A DNA stretch of 64,000 nt, taken from NCBI GenBank assembly GCA_963663165.1, contig OY760175.1:3680001-3744000 (forward strand). The letters are read 5' to 3'. A program made the position numbers and the translations under genes. The DNA is from an uncultured Desulfospira sp. (lineage in GTDB: Bacteria; Desulfobacterota; Desulfobacteria; Desulfobacterales; Desulfobacteraceae). This document shows positions 39,659 to 62,892 of the stretch, piece by piece (within the stretch, counting starts at the first letter, position 1; each line of letters starts with the position of its first letter). The notes under the pieces are model-generated. The model made no database searches. It was not told the DNA's origin and saw only the letters and a list, made by a program, of their open reading frames with translations.

Positions 39659-40086
39659 CAAGAAACTAGATACTGGAAACAAGAAACAAGACCTTAACTG
39701 TATCGGTTGATTAAGCCTCGCAGCATTCTTCCGATCTCCTGATATCTTTGATCAAAAAAAGTTTGGTCTTGTTTGCTCAAATACTCAAGGTCTCTTGAAA
39801 ACTCCAGCCATACCCGGCTTTCGTCACATGATCCCATGGCTATTTGAACGAATCTTCTTACATCAGCTTTACTGGATTGCTTGCCCATCCCTTCTGCAAT
39901 ATTTGCCGGGATAGATTTGCTTGACTTCCTTAGTTGTTGAGCCAGTTCATACTGCTCATGCTGGGGAAATCTTAGACTTACTTTGTGCACTTCCAACGCT
40001 AACTGATAAGACTTTTTAAAAACTTCAAGTCTATGGTAAGGCATCATCGCCCTCCTTGTTTCTTGTCTCTAGTATCTAGTTTCTTG
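39659..40086 (-). other. 23S rRNA intervening sequence 1 (helix 45 position), ~428 nt, ORF-bearing
   Basis: Between ACGCTCTTCTACC and CCGCAGCTTCGG; 32-nt inverted arms (30/32 match) built of 7-mers. Confidence 0.92.
39694..40047 (-). CDS. Four-helix-bundle protein (23S rRNA IVP family, Avd-like fold)
   Basis: LEVFKKS..FPQHEQYELAQQLRKSSKSIPANIAEG..IAMGSCDE; AAGGAGG RBS; same strand as the rRNA. Confidence 0.93.
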   Translation of the reverse strand: MMPYHRLEVFKKSYQLALEVHKVSLRFPQHEQYELAQQLRKSSKSIPANIAEGMGKQSSKADVRRFVQIAMGSCDESRVWLEFSRDLEYLSKQDQTFFDQRYQEIGRMLRGLINRYS

Positions 40087-44288: not shown

Positions 44289-45188
44289 CTAAAAGCGGCC
44301 AGGCTTTTTTCTTTTTTTGACATTCACTACCGTAATCCCGGCAACAATAAAAATGACAGACCCCAGAAGATACCGGGTAACCGGCTCCCCTAAAAGCCAG
44401 ACACCGAAAAACACCCCGGCCAGGGGCACTATAAAAAGAAAGGAATACTGGGCCGTGGCCCCATATCGCCGCATCATGGCGTTCCATGCCACAAAACCGA
44501 CACAGGTGGTGACAAGGGCTTGGAAAAGGAGGGCATTGACCACCAGGGGAGTTACCGATGTCACCATGGGGTCATCCCAGATGACTGCCCCGACAAAAAA
44601 AAACGGCACCCCGATAACCATGGGATACAAGGTCACCTGGATGGTATTGAACCCGTCAATGATCCGTTTGAGAAACACAATGGAAACCGACCAGCACATC
44701 ACCGCACCCAAAACCATCAGGTCTCCGGAATGGATATCGGCATCCAGGTCTGGCCGGTCAAAAAAAAGCAGCACCACCCCGGTAAACCCCAGGGCGATAC
44801 CAAAAACCTTTTTAAGGGTTATCCGGTCTGCCGGGATGAAAAAATGAGATAAAATCATCACCATGAACGGGACCACATTGACGATCAGGGTTCCATGGGA
44901 CGCCGTGGTCCGGCTCAGTCCCACATGGAAACAGGAAAGCTGAAAACTGAACAGGCAGCCCTGAATAAAAATCAAGGCGGTCTGTTTAGGGGTCAGGCCC
45001 AGGGGGATCTTTTTATATGTTGCCCATAAAAACAGGCAAAAGCCGGCCACACAGAACCGGGTCCCGGCGGTGGTAAACGGGCCTAAGCCGGTCAGGGCGT
45101 ATTTAATGGCCACGGTGTTGCCCCCGAAAATGATGCATAAAACAACCATGCACAGGGCCGCCCCAACGGTCATGTCCTCATTTTTCAT
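44289..45188 (-). CDS. DMT/EamA family transporter
   Basis: ~10 TM; GTRF, LSHFF..DRITLKK, WLLGEPVT; probable start MKNEDM at 45188. Confidence 0.9.
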   Translation of the reverse strand: MKNEDMTVGAALCMVVLCIIFGGNTVAIKYALTGLGPFTTAGTRFCVAGFCLFLWATYKKIPLGLTPKQTALIFIQGCLFSFQLSCFHVGLSRTTASHGTLIVNVVPFMVMILSHFFIPADRITLKKVFGIALGFTGVVLLFFDRPDLDADIHSGDLMVLGAVMCWSVSIVFLKRIIDGFNTIQVTLYPMVIGVPFFFVGAVIWDDPMVTSVTPLVVNALLFQALVTTCVGFVAWNAMMRRYGATAQYSFLFIVPLAGVFFGVWLLGEPVTRYLLGSVIFIVAGITVVNVKKRKKPGRF

Positions 45189-45363
45189 TGCGGGTTGTTC
45201 TCCGGGAAAATAACCAGGCGCACCGCCTGAATCTTTAAAAAGGATACAAAAACCCGAAAGTTTGGTAAAGGGTTTTGTTTCCGGTTTGACACCTTGACTT
45301 TGAGCCATATATTTCATACTGGTTTTAGGCATATCTAACAAAACAAAGGTGCCCGGCATTTTC

Positions 45364-45744
45364 ATGAAGCGACCATTAACTCATTCCTTGCTGATTTTCA
45401 CGACCGCACTGGCAATCAGTCTTAATCTGACGCTGAGTGAAACGGCCCGCTCTCTTCATATCCGCCATGAGCACAGCTGTATCTGCCGCCATATCGGGAT
45501 AAAGGACCTTGGCATTCACACCTGTCCTGTCCGGCACGGGCATACATGGACCCGGCCTCACCATGACTGTTTAATATGCAAGGCCTTTGAACTGTTCCAT
45601 ACGGTTTTCACCTCCAGACACCTTTATGTTTCCCCGCTTTTCCTGCCGGCAGCGGGGGCTGTTCCATCCAATGTCCCCCGGATCACACAAACAGCCGGCT
45701 TTGTGAAACAGGCCAGGGCGCCGCCTATAGAGGGACTCGGCTGA
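45364..45744 (+). CDS. DUF2946/CruR-like leader protein with CxxC and RAPP arrest motif
   Basis: N-terminal hydrophobic segment, His/Cys-rich middle, HHDCLIC, C-terminal QARAPPIEGLG; directly upstream of znuA. Confidence 0.75.
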   Translation: MKRPLTHSLLIFTTALAISLNLTLSETARSLHIRHEHSCICRHIGIKDLGIHTCPVRHGHTWTRPHHDCLICKAFELFHTVFTSRHLYVSPLFLPAAGAVPSNVPRITQTAGFVKQARAPPIEGLG

Positions 45745-45825
45745 AGACCGATGGCGGATCATCAGCCTGAACACCATACATTTCCATATCCGGACAAATT
45801 TCAAAATTTTAATAAAGGAGAACCC

Positions 45826-46761
45826 ATGAACACTGTGATTCGTTTGACGGTTGGATTGTTCCTGATGCTTGCCCTGCCGGGAGCCGTGTTTGCCAAGGCC
45901 CCTTTGCAGGTCCAGGTCAGTATCCTGCCCCAGAAATATTTTGTTGAAAGAGTGGCCAAAGATCTTGCAACGGTCGATGTCCTGGTCAAACCCGGCAAAA
46001 GCCCGGCCACCTATTCCCCGTCCCCGGACCAGATCAAAACCCTGGCCGGCGCGGATGTCTATTTTAGAATCGGTGTCCCCTTTGAAAACGGGTTCATGCA
46101 TAAGATAGAAGATATTGCCAAAAACATCCTTGTGGTCGACACCCGGAAGGGCATCACCCTCAGGGACATGAAAGCCCATCATCATGATGAAGAGGGAGAT
46201 GAGCACCACGAACATCACGGGGATGCCGACCACAAGGAACACGGGCACGAAGGCCATGAAGGCGACCATCACGCCGGCAAAGATCCCCATATCTGGATGA
46301 GCCCGATGCTGGTAAAACAGCAGGCCCTGACCATTTGCCAGACCCTGATCAGCCTTGATCCTGACCATAAGACCGATTTTGAAGCCAATTATAAAGCGTT
46401 TGCTCAGGATCTGGACAATCTTAACCAGGAACTGTCCGCGGCCCTGGCCCCTGTAAAAGGTGAAAATCTTTTTGTATTTCACCCGGCTTTTGGGTATTTT
46501 ACGGATGCCTACGGCCTGGAGCAGGTAGCCATAGAACAAATGGGAAAGGCGCCCAAGGGAAAGGAGCTGTCCCAGATTATTAAACAGGCCAAGGAACAAA
46601 AGACCCATGTCATTTTTGTCCAGCCCCAGTTTGACCAGACAGCGGCCCAGAAAATTGCATCGGCCATCAACGGGGCCGTGGTGCCCATTAACCCCCTTGC
46701 CGAGGATTACCTGGCCAATATGAAAACCATTGGTGACACGGTTGCGGCAGGATTAAAATAG
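45826..46761 (+). CDS. znuA: Zn/Mn ABC transporter substrate-binding protein with His-rich loop
   Basis: Signal peptide; long His/acidic loop; DPHIWMSP; FHPAFGYF; AAAGGAG RBS. Confidence 0.9.
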   Translation: MNTVIRLTVGLFLMLALPGAVFAKAPLQVQVSILPQKYFVERVAKDLATVDVLVKPGKSPATYSPSPDQIKTLAGADVYFRIGVPFENGFMHKIEDIAKNILVVDTRKGITLRDMKAHHHDEEGDEHHEHHGDADHKEHGHEGHEGDHHAGKDPHIWMSPMLVKQQALTICQTLISLDPDHKTDFEANYKAFAQDLDNLNQELSAALAPVKGENLFVFHPAFGYFTDAYGLEQVAIEQMGKAPKGKELSQIIKQAKEQKTHVIFVQPQFDQTAAQKIASAINGAVVPINPLAEDYLANMKTIGDTVAAGLK

Positions 46762-46866: not shown

Positions 46867-47622
46867 ATGGACCAAGAAACCGATATCCAGATAGACCAGG
46901 TATCTTTTGCTTATACCCAGCGGACCATTCTTGAGAATGTCAGTCTTGCTGTGGGCAGGCATGATTTTGCAAGCATTGTCGGCCCCAACGGCGGCGGAAA
47001 AACCACTCTTTTAAAGCTCATTTTAGGGTTGATCGCCCCGGATTCAGGAAACATCCGGGTATTTGGGAAATCGCCGGAACAGGCCCGGCACAAAATCGGG
47101 TACATGCCCCAGTATGCCCATCTGGACATGGACTTTCCAGCCACGGTGCTGGACGTGGTTCTCATGGGAAGGCTGAACAGGGCCCGGTTCTGGTTTTCCA
47201 AAAAAGACAAAACCCAGGCCGAACAGGCCATTGAAAGGGTGGATCTCAAGGCATTTTCAAAAACCGGATTTAACGAACTGTCCGGAGGCCAGAAACAGCG
47301 GGCCCTCATTGCCCGGGCCCTGTGCAGCGACCCTGCCATCCTTCTGTTAGACGAACCCACAGCCAATGTAGACAATAAAACCGAGCAGACCCTGTTTAAG
47401 CTGTTAAAGGAACTGAATCAGGACATGACCATTCTTCTAGTTTCCCATGATTTGGGATTTGTTTCCAAGTACGTGAAAAGCGTGATCTGCGTTAACAAGC
47501 AGGTGGTCATCCACCCCACCACCGACCTGGAAGGCACCATGATCAAGGATATCTACCACGGGGACCTGAAAATGGTCCGTCATGACCACCGGTGTTCCGA
47601 AGGGGGCCACATCCATGATTGA
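46867..47622 (+). CDS. znuC: Metal ABC transporter ATPase
   Basis: GPNGGGKT, LSGGQKQR, LLLDEPT, VSHD. Confidence 0.9.
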   Translation: MDQETDIQIDQVSFAYTQRTILENVSLAVGRHDFASIVGPNGGGKTTLLKLILGLIAPDSGNIRVFGKSPEQARHKIGYMPQYAHLDMDFPATVLDVVLMGRLNRARFWFSKKDKTQAEQAIERVDLKAFSKTGFNELSGGQKQRALIARALCSDPAILLLDEPTANVDNKTEQTLFKLLKELNQDMTILLVSHDLGFVSKYVKSVICVNKQVVIHPTTDLEGTMIKDIYHGDLKMVRHDHRCSEGGHIHD

Positions 47623-48463
47623 GTTCCTTAAAGCCGTCATGGACCCGGACAACACGTTTTTACTTTATGCCGTGATCATGGGAGGGCTTGCGTCCATATC
47701 CTTCGGCATCATCGGCACCTTTGTCACCATCAAGCGCATCGGCTACCTGGCCGGGGCCATCTCCCATTCCGTGTTTGGCGGCATCGGCCTTGCCATCTAT
47801 CTTCAGGTCAACATGGGCCTTGCCTGGTTTGACCCGGTTTTAGGGGCGGTTCTGGCTGCGGTTGTTTCGGCACTGATCGTGGGGGTTGTCTCCATAAAGG
47901 CCAAGGCAAGGGAGGACACCATTATCGGAACCCTCTGGGCCGTGGGCATGGCCGCCGGCATCCTGTTTATCGATAAAACCCAGGGGTATTTCAACCTTTC
48001 GTCTTACCTGTTTGGGGATATTCTGCTGATTTCACAAAAAGACCTTGTGTTTGTTCTGGGGATGGATCTGCTGGTGATCGCTGTTGTTACGGTGTTTTTC
48101 AACCGTTTTTTTGCCGTCTGTTTTGACGCTGAATTCACCCTGCTCAGGGGGATCAACACCACGTTTTTCTATCTGTCCCTTCTGGTTCTGACCGCCCTGA
48201 CCGTTGTTCTTCTGGTCAGAATCGTGGGAATCGTTCTGGTCATTGCCCTGTTAACCATCCCGTCGGCCATTGCCTCTTTTTACGCCCGCCGTCTCTGGCA
48301 GATGGCCGCCATCTCCATTTTCCTGTGCGCCCTGTTTACCTGGACCGGCCTTGGGATCAGCTATACCTTGAGCCTGTCCTCGGGCCCCTGCATTATTGTT
48401 TTTGCAGGAACCGTTTATTTTGGACTTCTTGCCATTCATAAACTGATTTTAAAAAACAAATGA
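47615..48463 (+). CDS. znuB: Metal ABC transporter permease (ABC-3)
   Basis: AISHSVFGG, YLFGDIL, VGIVLVIALL. Confidence 0.9.
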   Translation: MIEFLKAVMDPDNTFLLYAVIMGGLASISFGIIGTFVTIKRIGYLAGAISHSVFGGIGLAIYLQVNMGLAWFDPVLGAVLAAVVSALIVGVVSIKAKAREDTIIGTLWAVGMAAGILFIDKTQGYFNLSSYLFGDILLISQKDLVFVLGMDLLVIAVVTVFFNRFFAVCFDAEFTLLRGINTTFFYLSLLVLTALTVVLLVRIVGIVLVIALLTIPSAIASFYARRLWQMAAISIFLCALFTWTGLGISYTLSLSSGPCIIVFAGTVYFGLLAIHKLILKNK

Positions 48464-49539
48464 ACGCCTTTAAACAACCGCCTGATCCCACTCCCTTTCC
48501 CATGGACCCTTCCCATGGCAACGGCTGCAGCTGTGCCCATGAGAAAGCCGCCCCAGGCATTCTGGATTCAGCGGGCAGGTCCATTCAGATTTTTATCCTG
48601 GTGTCGGCCATTATCATGGCCGTGTTTCAAGCCAGGTCCGAAGCCTTTATCTCTTTTTGCATCATCTTTTCATCCATTGTGCTGGAGGCCTTTCCCTTCA
48701 TGCTGCTCGGAACCCTTTTGGGCGGATTTGTAGAGGTCTTTTTATCCAGGGAGCAGTTCATCTCCATTCTCCCGAAAAATAAGACGGTGGCCATTGTCTG
48801 TGCGGCTTTTTTAGGCATTTTTTTCCCGGTATGTGAATGCGCCATTGTACCGGTGGTCAGAAAATTCCTTCAAAAGGGCATGCCCTTGGGATCGGCCGTA
48901 ACCTTTCTTCTGGCCGGCCCCATTGTCAATCCCCTGGTCTTTGCCTCTACCCTGGTGGCCTATACATTTGACTTTAAAGTCGCTTTTCTAAGGACCGCTG
49001 CAGGGCTTGTCATTGCCATTGCCGCAGGGCTTTTCATCAATGCCGTTATCCGGGAAAAAGACGCGGTAATCCCGGGGTCCTCCCATTCCTGCGCCCATTG
49101 CGGCCATGATCACCCCGCCCGCTTTGCCGGAAAAATAAAAGCCGCCCTGTTTCACGGAGCGGCCGATTTTTACGACATCGGCCGTTTTCTGATCATGGGG
49201 GCGTTGATTGCCGCCACCTTGCAGACCATGGTGGACCGGCAGGTTTTTCTTTCTCCGGGGACTGTTCCCCTGGTTTCCATCGGGGCCATGATGGTTCTGG
49301 CCTTTGTGCTGAACCTGTGTTCCGAGGCCGACGCCTTTATCTGTGCATCCTTCAGGCCCATGGGGATTCCCCTGTCGGCCCAGCTGGCCTTCATGGTTCT
49401 TGGCCCCATGCTGGATATCAAACTCATCCTCATGTACCTGGGCCTGTTTACCCGGAAAATGATTCTTCTGCTCTGCTTTTTTGTGGTGATGGCTGTTTTT
49501 GCGGCTTCGGTTGTTATGGAGGTGCTGCCATGGATATGA
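48460..49539 (+). CDS. DUF318/ArsP-like permease (YcgR-like)
   Basis: EAFPF, PVCECAIVP, LCSEADAF, GPMLDIK. Confidence 0.85.
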   Translation: MNAFKQPPDPTPFPMDPSHGNGCSCAHEKAAPGILDSAGRSIQIFILVSAIIMAVFQARSEAFISFCIIFSSIVLEAFPFMLLGTLLGGFVEVFLSREQFISILPKNKTVAIVCAAFLGIFFPVCECAIVPVVRKFLQKGMPLGSAVTFLLAGPIVNPLVFASTLVAYTFDFKVAFLRTAAGLVIAIAAGLFINAVIREKDAVIPGSSHSCAHCGHDHPARFAGKIKAALFHGAADFYDIGRFLIMGALIAATLQTMVDRQVFLSPGTVPLVSIGAMMVLAFVLNLCSEADAFICASFRPMGIPLSAQLAFMVLGPMLDIKLILMYLGLFTRKMILLLCFFVVMAVFAASVVMEVLPWI

Positions 49540-50258
49540 ACACCAGAGAAACCCACAGCCGGATTCTTCCCCCGGCCATCATGGCGGCCTGGGCCGGGGT
49601 CTTTGTCTACTTATTGATAAACGACCAGTACCTGCTGTTTCTCAAGCCCGATTTTTTGTTTCTCATCCTTGGGGGACTTTTGCTTTCCAGTCTCTATTTC
49701 TGGGGGTTTTTAGGAAAAATGCTTCCGGCAGACAGCGACCATACCGTAAAGGGGCTGTTTCTTTTGCTGCCCATTTTATTTATTTTTTCAGCCGGCGAAA
49801 ACAGCCTGGGCAGCTATACCCTGTCCAAACGGCCCATGGTTCTCCCTGAAACCGGCCAGGACCAGCCTTTTTCACCGAAGCCGGAAATAATCAGGCCCGC
49901 GGCCCCTAGCCAATCGGAATCCGGCCTTATCCCCATTACCCGGCTTATCCGGGAATGGGACGCCTTTGAAGGAAAAACCGTTACCATAGAAGGGCTGTTC
50001 ACGGGGAACGTGGCCGGACAGGAAGAATTAGGTGCCGTGTTCCGTTATTATGTGACCTGCTGCGCGGCTGATGCTCAGCCCGTGGGCGTATTCTTGAAAA
50101 AAACACCGGACATCAACTTTGAGGACAATGCCTGGGTCAGGGCCACCGGAACCGTCAATATCATGGAACGGGAAGGATTTCAGGTGATTTTCATGGCCCT
50201 CAAAAACATCGAGCCCAGGGAAAAACCCTCCAAAAACGCAGCCTATCTTTACAATTAG
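49530..50258 (+). CDS. DUF1980/TIGR03943 membrane protein (YcgQ-like)
   Basis: FRYYVTCCAADAQPVG; 3 N-terminal TM; GGAGG RBS. Confidence 0.85.
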   Translation: MDMNTRETHSRILPPAIMAAWAGVFVYLLINDQYLLFLKPDFLFLILGGLLLSSLYFWGFLGKMLPADSDHTVKGLFLLLPILFIFSAGENSLGSYTLSKRPMVLPETGQDQPFSPKPEIIRPAAPSQSESGLIPITRLIREWDAFEGKTVTIEGLFTGNVAGQEELGAVFRYYVTCCAADAQPVGVFLKKTPDINFEDNAWVRATGTVNIMEREGFQVIFMALKNIEPREKPSKNAAYLYN

Positions 50259-59467: not shown

Positions 59468-60592
59468 TTACATGCGATGGCCCTGTGAAACGATCCCGCT
59501 GCCCCGGGCCGAATCATATGCCGGGCGGCCCTCAAAATCAAAGATAACCACCCGGAAAACAATCCGGTCCCCTGAAAAGGTTCTGGTGGTTTCCAGAATA
59601 TTGGTGCCCACATGGGAAAGGATGGACGGATAGTTCGGATAAATATAGGTGAAGGCGTGCCGGGCCGTGTTGGCGGCCTTTATGTTCTCAGCCAGTGGCC
59701 CGTTCCCGGTTAGGTTTTGGGCCCATTGGGCCAGCCGTTCCATGGTCAGCTCGGATTTGGCCGCATGGGTGTGTTCAAACCCCAGGGCCATTTTAACCGC
59801 CTTTCCAAAAAAAACCGTATAGGTAATCTGTTTTATGGTCTTCTTAACGGCCTCGTCTATGGCGGCTTTAAAAAAATCCCCGGTCTGGATAAAGGCCTCC
59901 TCACTGAGGTCTGGGAGAAGGTCCATGGCCAGCCGCTCGCTTCGCCTTCCCGTGGTAAACACCAGGTGGTCAATCCCCCTGGCCGCTGCCACGGATATGG
60001 ATGAGCCGATGGTGGCAATATAAGCCTCATGGGACAGGGGGCGCACAATACCGGTGGTCCCGAGAATGGAGATTCCGCCCAGGATGCCCAGCCGGGCATT
60101 CAGGGTCTTTTTGGCCAGTTCCTCCCCTTTGGGCACAAAAATTTCAATGGTTACGTGAAATGAAGATTGAACGGAAAACTGCCTGAACACGGAATCCACA
60201 GCCCGGCGAATCATTTTCCGGGGGCCGGAATTGATGGCCGGCTGGCCCACTTCAACCTCCAGGCCCGGCTTGGTCACGGTTCCGACACCCTGTCCCCCCT
60301 GGATATCAATGCCCATCTGCTTTGCAGGGGAAAGGGTGATTCTGGCCCCGATCTGGGCCTTGTGGGTAACGTCGGGATCATCCCCGGCATCCTTGATGAT
60401 AACGGCCTCACAGCAGCGTTCTGAAATTCGGGTAACCCTTTCTACCGGAACAGTCCGGGTTTCTCCGGTTAAAAATTCAATCTCAACCGCATCCGGGATA
60501 TTCCCTGACACCAGGTTGACCAGTGCGGCCTTGACCGCAGCAGATGCCGCCGCCCCCGTGGTAAAGCCTTTCCTTAGCCGTTCAGTTCCCAA
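59468..60592 (-). CDS. cbiD: Cobalt-precorrin-5B C1-methyltransferase
   Basis: LRKGFTTG, KDAGDDPDVTH, GVGTVTKPGL, GGISILGTTGIV; probable TTG start. Confidence 0.95.
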   Translation of the reverse strand: MGTERLRKGFTTGAAASAAVKAALVNLVSGNIPDAVEIEFLTGETRTVPVERVTRISERCCEAVIIKDAGDDPDVTHKAQIGARITLSPAKQMGIDIQGGQGVGTVTKPGLEVEVGQPAINSGPRKMIRRAVDSVFRQFSVQSSFHVTIEIFVPKGEELAKKTLNARLGILGGISILGTTGIVRPLSHEAYIATIGSSISVAAARGIDHLVFTTGRRSERLAMDLLPDLSEEAFIQTGDFFKAAIDEAVKKTIKQITYTVFFGKAVKMALGFEHTHAAKSELTMERLAQWAQNLTGNGPLAENIKAANTARHAFTYIYPNYPSILSHVGTNILETTRTFSGDRIVFRVVIFDFEGRPAYDSARGSGIVSQGHRM

Positions 60593-61985
60593 TGGTATCC
60601 CTGTAAGCCCGGCATGAAGCAACAAACCGGCGGGCGCAGCCCGGGTTGGAGCCAAAATGAACGTGCATATATGATCCCAGGGTCTGAGCGGTCTGGTACC
60701 CTTTCAAGGCAAGTTCCTGACCGGACCTGGACCTGACCTGATAGACATTTTTAGTGCAAACCGGTGTTTTTGTATCCTGGATGGCGGAATAGTGGAATTC
60801 ATGGCCCCGGATCACATCCCCTTTCCGGCCGATCAGGGTATCTTCCTGAAGCACAATTTCACGGTACCCCAGAGCCCTGAGCCGTTTGGACATCTGAATG
60901 GAAAAATCAAAGCAGCCGGCCATGGGAAAAACCATATCCCCGTCCATGACCTGGCGGCATAAAAACATAAACCCGCCGCACTCCCCGTATATGGGCAGGC
61001 CGGCCAGACTGAGATTTTTGATTTCGGCCAGCAGCTCTTTTTTTCTGGAAAGGATTCCGGCATGAACCTCGGGATATCCCCCGCCAAAATAGATACCGTC
61101 AATGCCCCGGGGCAGATGGTCCTGCCTTAAGGGGGAAAACTCAACGATCCGGGCGCCCTGCGCCTTGAGCTGATCAATGTTATCCTGATAATAAAAACAA
61201 AAGGCCTCGTCCCGGGCCAGGGCAATGAGGGGGCCGTCCCCGGAACCAGCGACCGATGCCGGCAAAGGGGGGGGCGCCTGATCCGAAACAGGTTCCGGTG
61301 ATACCGGTTTCAGGTCTTTGATAAACCGGTCCATGTCAAGATTTTCATCAACCATGGAGACCAGGGTGTCCAGCACTTTGGGAGAAATTTCCCGCTCATC
61401 AGCCGTGACCAGCCCCAAATGGCGCTCGGGCATGACAATTTCATCGTTCCGGGGCATGTGCCCCAAAACCCTTGTGGTGCAGTGCTGCTCTACGGCGGTT
61501 TTCAAATATTCGTAGTGAACCTTGCTGCCGGTCCGGCTGAAGATCACCCCGGCCAGCTCAAGGTCCGGATCAAAGGATTCAAACCCCTTGACCATGGCAG
61601 CGGCACTTCTGGCCATGCCCTTGGCATCCAGGATCAACACCACGGGAAGCCCCAGCCATTTGGCCATCTGGGCCGTTGACCCGGTCTCGGACACCCCGTC
61701 ATATCCGTCAAAAAGCCCCATCACCCCTTCTGCCAGGGCAATGTCCGCCCCTTTGGACCCCGTGTCAAACAGATACCGGTTATACGCCCTGGTCAGCATC
61801 CAGGAATCCAGATTCACACTGACCCGGCCGGCAATCTTAGTATGATGCCCCGGGTCAATAAAATCCGGCCCCACCTTAAACGGCGCAACTTTTATCCCCC
61901 GGGAATTTAACCAGGCCAGAAGGGCCATGGTAATGGTGGTTTTTCCCGATCCCGAACCCGTAGCGGCAACAACAAACCCTTTCAT
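60582..61985 (-). CDS. cbiA: Cobyrinate a,c-diamide synthase
   Basis: SGSGKTT, FKVGPDFIDP, EGVMGLFDG, ERHLGL, GECGG, GHEFHYS. Confidence 0.95.
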   Translation of the reverse strand: MKGFVVAATGSGSGKTTITMALLAWLNSRGIKVAPFKVGPDFIDPGHHTKIAGRVSVNLDSWMLTRAYNRYLFDTGSKGADIALAEGVMGLFDGYDGVSETGSTAQMAKWLGLPVVLILDAKGMARSAAAMVKGFESFDPDLELAGVIFSRTGSKVHYEYLKTAVEQHCTTRVLGHMPRNDEIVMPERHLGLVTADEREISPKVLDTLVSMVDENLDMDRFIKDLKPVSPEPVSDQAPPPLPASVAGSGDGPLIALARDEAFCFYYQDNIDQLKAQGARIVEFSPLRQDHLPRGIDGIYFGGGYPEVHAGILSRKKELLAEIKNLSLAGLPIYGECGGFMFLCRQVMDGDMVFPMAGCFDFSIQMSKRLRALGYREIVLQEDTLIGRKGDVIRGHEFHYSAIQDTKTPVCTKNVYQVRSRSGQELALKGYQTAQTLGSYMHVHFGSNPGCARRFVASCRAYRDTIGN

Positions 61986-61995
61986 CCTTCAGCCT

Positions 61996-62619
61996 TCATC
62001 CTTCATCCTTTCCAACCGCCATCATAGCCAACGCATTGACCACCGCCGCAGCCACATTAGAGCCCCCTTTCCGGCCTTTGTTGGTAATATAGGGGATATC
62101 CAGTTTCATGAGTTCATCTTTGGATTCAGCGGCATTGACAAACCCCACCGGAAACCCGATGACCAGAGCAGGGGAGGCTTTGCCTTCCCGGATCAGCTCA
62201 ATCAGGCGCAACAGGGCCGTGGGGGCATTTCCCACCACGTAAATCCCCTGGGACAGCTCTTGGGCTGCCGCATCCACGGCTGCCAGTGCCCGGGTGGTGC
62301 CGGCGGCTTTGGCCTTAGCGGCAATGTCGGGCTCGGCAATGAGGCACTGAACCTGTCCGCCGAACTGACTGATCTCTTTTTTCCGGATCCCCACCCGGGC
62401 CATGTTGGTATCCGTAAAAATCTGATTTCCCCCGCGGATGGCCGCTATCCCTTGTTCAACAGCATCCTTGTTAAACCGGATGGTGTTAATGTACTCAAAA
62501 TCCGCACTGGTATGGATAATCCGCCGGACGATGGGCCATTTTTCCCCGTCAAAGCCATGATCTGCCGCTTCCTGATCGATGATTTGAAAACTTAATGTTT
62601 CAATTTCCTGTGGTTTCAT
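61996..62619 (-). CDS. cbiC: Precorrin-8X/cobalt-precorrin-8 methylmutase
   Basis: RRIIHTSADF, GNAPTAL, PVGFVNAAESK, GRKGGS. Confidence 0.95.
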   Translation of the reverse strand: MKPQEIETLSFQIIDQEAADHGFDGEKWPIVRRIIHTSADFEYINTIRFNKDAVEQGIAAIRGGNQIFTDTNMARVGIRKKEISQFGGQVQCLIAEPDIAAKAKAAGTTRALAAVDAAAQELSQGIYVVGNAPTALLRLIELIREGKASPALVIGFPVGFVNAAESKDELMKLDIPYITNKGRKGGSNVAAAVVNALAMMAVGKDEG

Positions 62620-62892
62620 CAATATTCCTTTTTTTTAAAGGATATGGGATATGGGACATGGGGTTGCCTTGCGGCTTTTCCCGCATGTCCCAAGTCCCAT
62701 ATCCCATATCCCAACCCGGACTTATTCGTTGTGGCCGTTTCTGATCAAAATCCTGTCGGCCCGCCGCCGTTATTGATGTTGATATTTTTTAGCCAAACTA
62801 CCACCTTTAGGTTGTTTTTGGCAACTATCCTGCTAAAATACCGTTCAAATGCTGGTTTGGATAAAAACCTTTTTAAGGAGTAAATTTAGACA

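Follow-up and report, generated by a model that had tools for sequence, protein, structure and literature searches.

The operon for a ZnuA-type metal importer in an uncultured Desulfospira species begins with a 126-residue open reading frame that probably acts in cis as a ribosome-arrest leader of the CruR or CutF kind and gates the metal-uptake genes behind it (rough probability 0.6, judged from sequence comparison). The reading frame is real and under purifying selection. We are confident that it is a functional arrest leader, and consider it probable that the leader senses metal. What is new is the operon class behind the leader and, probably, the metal, while the mechanism class has already been published for CruR and CutF. 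The leader lies in a 64,000-nucleotide stretch of one contig, which is referred to as the window (Table 1).

Table 1. Features of the leader and the downstream operon in the window (positions count from the first nucleotide of the window).
Feature	Position	Strand	Basis
Sigma-70-type promoter TTGACA-16-TATATT, ~50 nt before the leader ATG	45286..45313	+	11/12 consensus matches
Leader ORF, 126 aa, divergent DUF2946/CruR-like putative arrest peptide	45364..45744	+	Profile match, motifs, conservation, purifying selection, ESM Atlas
Hydrophobic N-terminal segment, residues 9-24	45388..45435	+	Kyte-Doolittle; AlphaFold helix 4-32
His-rich stretch, residues 32-68, 10 His, variable in detail	45457..45567	+	
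CxxC, C69-C72, 45 residues before RAPP	45568..45579	+	Invariant in 19-sequence alignment A4
RAPP arrest motif, R118-P121, codons AGG GCG CCG CCT	45715..45726	+	R and both P invariant in A4
RNA hairpin GGCUGA...UCAGCC over the leader stop codon	45739..45767	+	Predicted; just 3' of a RAPP-stalled ribosome
znuA Shine-Dalgarno AGGAG	45816..45820	+	Sequence; kept in G001 and G002
ZnuA-type binding protein, His-rich loop, first canonical His ligand replaced by Ala	45826..46761	+	Pfam ZnuA 1e-67
ABC ATPase, ZnuC-like	46867..47622	+	
ABC-3 permease, ZnuB-like	47612..48463	+	Pfam ABC-3 1e-60
ArsP_1/PF03773 permease (DUF318 of the original prediction)	48460..49539	+	Pfam 6e-58
DUF1980/TIGR03943 permease subunit	49533..50258	+	TIGR03943 90.8 bits, cut-off 88.8; DUF1980_C

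The leader stands between a divergent EamA gene, which starts at 45188 on the opposite strand, and znuA, from which it is separated by 81 nt. Its promoter is the sole promoter-like site in positions 45150-45900 (shuffled sequences contain 0.9 on average), and TTGAC and TATATT are conserved in the other two members of the genus, G001 and G002. One contig of an independent DNA run, X3, spans the whole leader with 0 differences. RNA data sets containing the sequence were not listed, a result that is uninformative about its expression. Both genus members carry an ORF before znuA with 70% (G001) and 38% (G002) protein identity to the leader, in which CxxC, ARAPP, and the spacer of 45 residues are intact. 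The dN/dS of the leader is 0.26 against G001 and 0.35 against G002, which indicates purifying selection, and the other two sense frames of the region contain 2-10 stops in all three genomes. C-terminal RAPP occurs in 19 six-frame ORFs of the genome, and CxxC is found 35-55 residues upstream in one of them, the leader, compared with 2/109 for control motifs. The motif by itself is therefore only suggestive, and its conservation is decisive.

The translation agrees with the original prediction of a 126-residue ORF in which RAPP precedes the stop codon, TGA, by five codons. The His/Cys stretches listed in that prediction, HIRHEHSCICRH, HTCPVRHGH, and HHDCLIC, are all present in the leader, but they are mostly variable: besides CxxC, all three genus members keep only H32, H35, H37, C54, and H60. 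The start of the leader is basic, and its hydropathy maximum of 1.87 (Kyte-Doolittle, 15-residue) is the lowest among 22 leaders. In the AlphaFold model, confidence is high only for helix 4-32; the model is otherwise largely unstructured and too poor for a fold search (mean pLDDT 62.5, pTM 0.34).

The leader resembles CruR (Bp2923) of Bordetella pertussis in being the first gene of a metal-import operon and in its putative export-type N-terminus, CxxC, distance of 45 residues, and C-terminal RAPP, as well as in a C-rich coding strand, a 5' leader of ~45-50 nt, and a match to DUF2946, which is weak here (PMC9426467). DUF2946 (PF11162), the family for which a search had been proposed, is the only Pfam match of the leader, but its 18.6 bits (E 0.0034, model positions 45-117) fall short of the gathering threshold of 23.7 bits. 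A "DUF2946 domain-containing" cluster is among the top ESM Atlas matches at 0.97, and 36% of the cluster members carry the family. DUF2946 is also matched by 17 of the 19 members of alignment A4, described below, at E<=0.05 (best 1.2e-7), which is partly circular, as 14/19 came from the DUF2946 genome search. The spacer between CxxC and RAPP equals the CruR value and lies within the range of 45 +/- 2 for CruR-type leaders; in CruR, the spacer is functionally required, and it is conserved within 1-2 residues in >2000 DUF2946 proteins (PMC9426467). RAPP is under-represented in bacterial proteomes, and arrest was seen in CruR and in 7/7 Streptomyces RAPP/RGPP proteins tested; the two prolines occupy the P- and A-sites in the CruR arrest, and the RAPP motif alone is insufficient for arrest (PMC12992588). 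CruR-type uORFs are further defined by a copper-related operon, whereas the leader is the first gene of a ZnuA/ABC-3 operon. The leader thus matches CruR in the tested sequence features, but misses the Pfam threshold and the copper-operon context. The weak DUF2946 match, the 45-residue spacing, the conserved CxxC and RAPP, and the purifying selection support, at the level of sequence, the earlier proposal of a CruR-analogous arrest leader.

Only one or two proteins were recovered by sequence searches that used A1, the alignment of the three genus members; relatives were obtained through genome searches with DUF2946 and A4. Of the 401 phylum genomes searched with DUF2946, 67 had a match at E<=0.05, and inspection of 40 of the 72 listed places yielded clean leaders in 15 genomes. 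Alignment A4 contains 19 sequences, taken from the leaders of these 15 genomes and those of the window's genus, G146, and G029, with G300 left out. Its mean column identity is 23%, and one His, CxxC, R, and PP are its only invariant columns. Searching with A4 gave matches in 10 of 401 genomes of the order and in 12 of 161 genomes of the family, 10 of which hold real leaders. Eight of these precede ZnuA. The other two, in G931 and G131, are leaders of the same kind that stand before ZrgA and its ABC partners, which form an unrelated zinc importer. A protein search with A4 returned 125 matches, for which the DNA context is absent, and a scan of 38 loci with the PF03773 permease found a leader before znuA in only one.

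The 28 counted leaders precede ZnuA (11), a porin-like gene followed by ZnuA (8), a TonB receptor (5), ZrgA (2), a porin-like gene alone (1), and an unidentified gene (1); none precedes a copper chaperone or oxidase gene. RAPP is positioned within 1-11 codons of the stop, and the spacer measures 44-48 in 28/28, a range that is partly circular because the leaders were identified with a profile and only spacers of 25-60 were retained. The counts exclude G445 (RAPP, CCT CCC), G300 (RGPP, CCG CCG), and G806 (CGPP, CCT CCT), as well as profile matches with internal stops or without the motif (G041, G069, G595, and most of the DUF2946 places). The leader of G445 (L136, 970-2115), with His, CxxC, RAPP, and a spacer of 46, is located before a DUF882/peptidase M15 gene and not a transporter gene. 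That of G806 (L157, 1432-1875) is closely related to the G561 leader and is followed by a TonB receptor of the same type; the replacement of RGPP by CGPP is possibly a natural loss of arrest. G585 (L179, 936-3552), whose genome has Zur, carries a leader 360 nt before a truncated znuA, which is followed by a transposase-like gene.

The downstream genes had been named from the letters of the window as a znuACB-DUF318-DUF1980 operon, and profiles confirmed ZnuA, the ABC ATPase, ABC-3, ArsP_1/PF03773, and DUF1980_C/TIGR03943. The closest solved chain to the binding protein is 1PQ4, a zinc uptake binding protein (9e-64). An alternative znuA start at an in-frame ATG at 45751 is absent from G001 and was dropped. 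In most of the surveyed Desulfobacterales ZnuA-like proteins (L001-L030), the first His ligand is replaced by Ala or another residue (SPATY for DPHTY) and the fourth position is Gln; two canonical His and the His-rich loop remain.

We hypothesize that one promoter would transcribe the leader and the operon together, because the promoter is conserved and a second promoter-like site was not found. By analogy with CruR, ApdA, and ApdP, the translating ribosome would stall with Pro120 in the P-site and Pro121 in the A-site. CxxC would then be 48-51 residues and the His cluster 52-88 residues away from the P-site proline, just outside the exit tunnel, where the geometry suggests that both could bind metal. 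If metal is scarce, the ribosome would stay stalled and the operon would be on, whereas metal binding would release the stall and turn the operon off. This polarity is that of CruR and was assigned because the operon encodes an importer. The sensed metal would most likely be Zn(II). More tentatively, and at somewhat less than even odds, the leaders may in general be zinc-sensing arrest peptides that substitute for Zur before unrelated zinc importers and have two outputs, anti-Shine-Dalgarno or Rho. In sulfate reducers and other Desulfobacterota, this zinc-sensor reading would cover ZnuABC, ZrgABCD, and operons of a porin with ZnuA.

Part of the case for zinc comes from comparison with operons that Zur is predicted to control. 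Rodionov et al. predicted the deltaproteobacterial Zur box, ATGCAACnnnGTTGCAT, and noted in 2004 znuABC operons without Zur, for which "another regulatory mechanism" was proposed (PMC545781). The operon class is the same as here, and the box precedes znuA in leaderless relatives; Zur, however, is a DNA-binding repressor, and the window is without the box and the genome without that protein. The best match to the box has 4 mismatches of 14, in agreement with the earlier failure to recognize a Zur-like palindrome upstream. In the first survey, the box was present at <=3 mismatches before znuA in 11/26 leaderless loci versus 0/4 leader loci. When all 28 leader loci are considered, a match with 3 mismatches is found only in G931, where it lies inside the leader. 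Zur-type boxes also precede znuA/PF03773 operons in L056, L059, L060, and L062. The genome has only two Fur-family genes, one PerR-like and one a Fur fusion; a Zur of the order's type was not found in it, as the Zur-type profile gives nothing better than E 1e-7. The operon-linked Fur-family proteins (alignment A2) are called Zur by linkage only, because the one member scanned has no classification in NCBIfam. This Zur type is present in 34/161 genomes of the family, 0/8 leader-znuA genomes, and 2/2 leader-zrgA genomes; its absence from the eight carries little weight, because it is found in only 34/161 (chance ~0.15, reckoned by hand). Strict exclusivity of leader and Zur was rejected, since G585, G722, G931, and G131 carry both.

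A quick tree was built from 38 ZnuA rows and omits G030 (another ORF had been picked), G416, G217, and a partial duplicate of G029. In it, the protein from the window belongs to a 17-row clade (SH-aLRT 100). Leaders occur in six rows of the clade and boxes in none; the other 11 rows, among them G020 with its PF03773-DUF1980 genes, lack both. One origin of the leader with repeated loss would fit these sequences. The same-family znuA operons of G014 (L051), G018 (L052), and G020 (L178) have neither a leader nor a Zur-type box. The divergent eamA arrangement is retained in G014 and G018, where the two genes are just ~200 nt apart. A 23-nt sequence with TGCAA-N5-TTGCA has nine copies in G000:C1 (566928, 1244450, 1889982, 1891834, 1914065, 4921821, 4944755, 4947112, and 4953810), which are probably not Zur boxes but the terminus of a repeated element.

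In related bacteria, Zur appears to do the shut-off job that we propose for the leader. The regulator swap, the zinc-type binding protein, and the leader before ZrgA therefore make zinc the likeliest signal, and, provided that the leader senses metal, we favor zinc with some reserve. Counting against the favored explanation are the five TonB receptors of unspecified cargo behind counted leaders and the missing first His ligand of the binding protein. The original prediction had allowed for Zn, Co, or Ni, and the comparative evidence of the box swap, ZrgA, and the solved relatives narrows the choice towards zinc. It is unlikely that the same arrest switch responds instead to Co, Ni, or Cu(I). 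In favor of such a metal, the binding protein is without its first His ligand, and cobalamin-like genes are located ~10 kb downstream of the operon (59468-62622, - strand), which we take from their sequences to be the pathway genes cbiD, cbiA/cobB, and cbiC. Moreover, CxxC is the copper site in CruR (PMC9426467), and His-only CutF-like proteins precede Ni/Co HupE/UreJ genes (PMC9973294). However, the same His-to-Ala variant of the binding protein is found behind Zur-type boxes in G023, G035, G040, and G034, the leader also precedes ZrgA, and a copper chaperone or oxidase gene follows 0/28 counted leaders.

Pairing of CCGCC with GGCGG, which had been suggested as a hairpin, was rejected: both sequences exist (45721-45725 and 45753-45757), but they are unpaired in the minimum-energy and centroid structures (z 0.14), and the pairing is lost in G001 and G002. 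The C-rich, G-poor tract claimed to follow it is present in the window (10 C/2 G in 45770-45809), but has 7 C/5 G in G001 and 9 C/10 G in G002, and was discarded as a Rho site since it is not conserved. The hairpin predicted over the leader stop codon has an identical outer stem in G001 and is absent in G002. There is no intrinsic terminator on the + strand between the leader and znuA, and the search for known riboswitches and RNA families gave one chance-level match only (17.6 bits versus a gathering threshold of 49.5). The genome has a rho gene, and C exceeds G along the leader, as in cruR. The skew before RAPP, 0.19, is in the top 3.7% of 3007 long-ORF ends; it matches the amino-acid expectation of 0.17 +/- 0.06, so that the codons themselves give no hint of a Rho site. 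The znuA ribosome-binding site (RBS) of this genome is predicted to be open either way, with an opening energy of 2.78 free and 2.72 stalled, and recoding of the first Pro changes nothing. By elimination, Rho termination on the C-rich leader mRNA would be a likelier shut-off here than RBS occlusion, and we give it an even chance.

The output could also be translational, with the stalled ribosome covering an anti-Shine-Dalgarno and freeing the znuA RBS in the style of SecM or CutF. CCUCC is complementary to GGAGG, so that the Pro-Pro codons of many relatives spell an anti-Shine-Dalgarno, which these relatives would use instead of Rho. The first Pro codon is CCT in 17/22 leaders, versus 4.6 expected from local usage and 36/145 for the other Pro codons, and then in 20/28 leaders, never being CCC. 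Slow decoding of CCU could be an alternative cause of this bias. When 30 nt over the Pro-Pro codons are blocked, the predicted opening of the RBS costs at least 1 kcal/mol less in 12/25 leaders (control blocks: 3-4/25 upstream and 9/25 downstream), and a simulated stall in G002 gives a 3.5 kcal/mol RBS switch. By analogy with the known arrest peptides, the stalled ribosome probably acts by exposing the RBS in relatives that have CCUCC codons. In this genome, however, the codons are CCG CCT, the opening energy hardly changes, and no stem opened by the stall is predicted; the block has little or no effect in G001, G160, G098, G927, and G088, and kin are not independent. A translational output therefore seems doubtful here.

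Two further readings dispense with the arrest leader as a working switch. The ORF might encode a free exported His/Cys metal chaperone that acts in trans, its RAPP being incidental or a relic. The hydrophobic N-terminus, the 10 His before CxxC, and a length normal for a small periplasmic protein are compatible with this, but a chaperone is very unlikely, given that invariance in A4 is limited to H, CxxC, R, and PP, that the model is largely unstructured, and that RAPP keeps close to the stop and has a constant spacing from CxxC. Alternatively, the leader could be a decaying relic or constitutive spacer with no present regulatory role here, since the family anti-Shine-Dalgarno is degenerate in this genome, many relatives are leaderless, and the leader diverges faster than its neighbors. 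The leader and intergenic region (45189-45825) have 76% nucleotide identity to the closest relative, L055, versus 85-94% for the flanking genes as a whole and 90-94% for eamA, znuA, znuC, znuB, and the PF03773 gene, and the leader dS of 0.77 is threefold the znuA dS of 0.26. Against this, the frame, CxxC, spacer, and RAPP are intact at both 70% and 38% identity, and the dN/dS of 0.26-0.35 leaves decay hardly credible. It is possible that the leader was recently replaced or is subject to local hypermutation. A second, deeper strain in run X3 diverges across the same leader and intergenic stretch.

The arrest leader favored here can be placed among known systems. The target of CruR is a copper TonB receptor with PepSY_TM, whereas the leader precedes a ZnuA-type ABC operon, and the metal is Cu in CruR and probably Zn here. 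The leader also differs in its origin from Desulfobacterota, which section 10 of PMC9426467 does not list, in the added His-rich stretch, and in an intergenic distance of 81 nt as opposed to 162 in CruR. CutF of Rhodobacter capsulatus (PMC9973294, 10.1101/2025.02.05.636593) is likewise a small exported leader with a Cys/His site, a C-terminal Pro motif, and action in cis; it has CxxxC and PPP, stalls upon copper induction, and targets a detoxifying oxidase, in contrast to RAPP and an importer here. CutF-like proteins number 5,334, some members are probably not copper-specific, and Ozturk et al. already predicted non-copper members before Ni/Co transporters (PMC9973294). The words "ZnuA", "zinc", and "ABC" are absent from the main text of that paper, the supplementary neighbor table of which may list ZnuA neighbors. 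The RAPP/RGPP uORFs of Fujiwara et al. 2025 are similar in being small secretory ORFs with C-terminal RAPP and metal-related genes downstream (PMC12992588). Nine RAPP ORFs before "zinc-regulated" receptors appear in its supplement and receive no comment in the text; ABC-transporter or ZnuA rows were not found among the listed rows of its file 8, and the main text does not mention zinc. SecM, ApdA, and ApdP share the RAP/P arrest chemistry and the exposure of a downstream RBS by the stalled ribosome, but they monitor Sec or YidC pulling and precede secretion genes, and no His/CxxC metal site is described for them in the accessible text (PMC10951233).

Literature searches found no zinc-sensing arrest peptide and no such leader on ZnuABC or ZrgABCD, with the supplements of PMC9426467, PMC9973294, and PMC12992588 possibly listing ZnuA neighbors; the first half of a 2024 metallostasis review mentions neither CruR nor CutF. 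The surprise is limited, since this class of mechanism has been published and members that do not sense copper had been predicted. The tested metal-sensing arrest peptides, CruR and CutF, respond to copper (PMC9426467, PMC9973294). If the leader responds to zinc, a nascent-chain sensor is retunable to another metal and could replace a DNA-binding repressor. It would then supply the "other regulatory mechanism" of 2004 for Zur-less deltaproteobacterial znuABC operons (PMC545781). The three genus members form a natural series of no, weak, and clear predicted anti-Shine-Dalgarno pairing, with which transcriptional and translational outputs could be separated.

Two minor observations concern other genes. 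A second, shorter rho-like gene is located beside the canonical rho at G000:C1 3460221-3461276 (391 bits, below the cut-off) and is also present in G001, G002, and G146. Inside the rRNA region of the window, a 117-residue ORF (39694-40047) resembles what we take to be the four-helix-bundle intervening-sequence protein of 23S rRNA.
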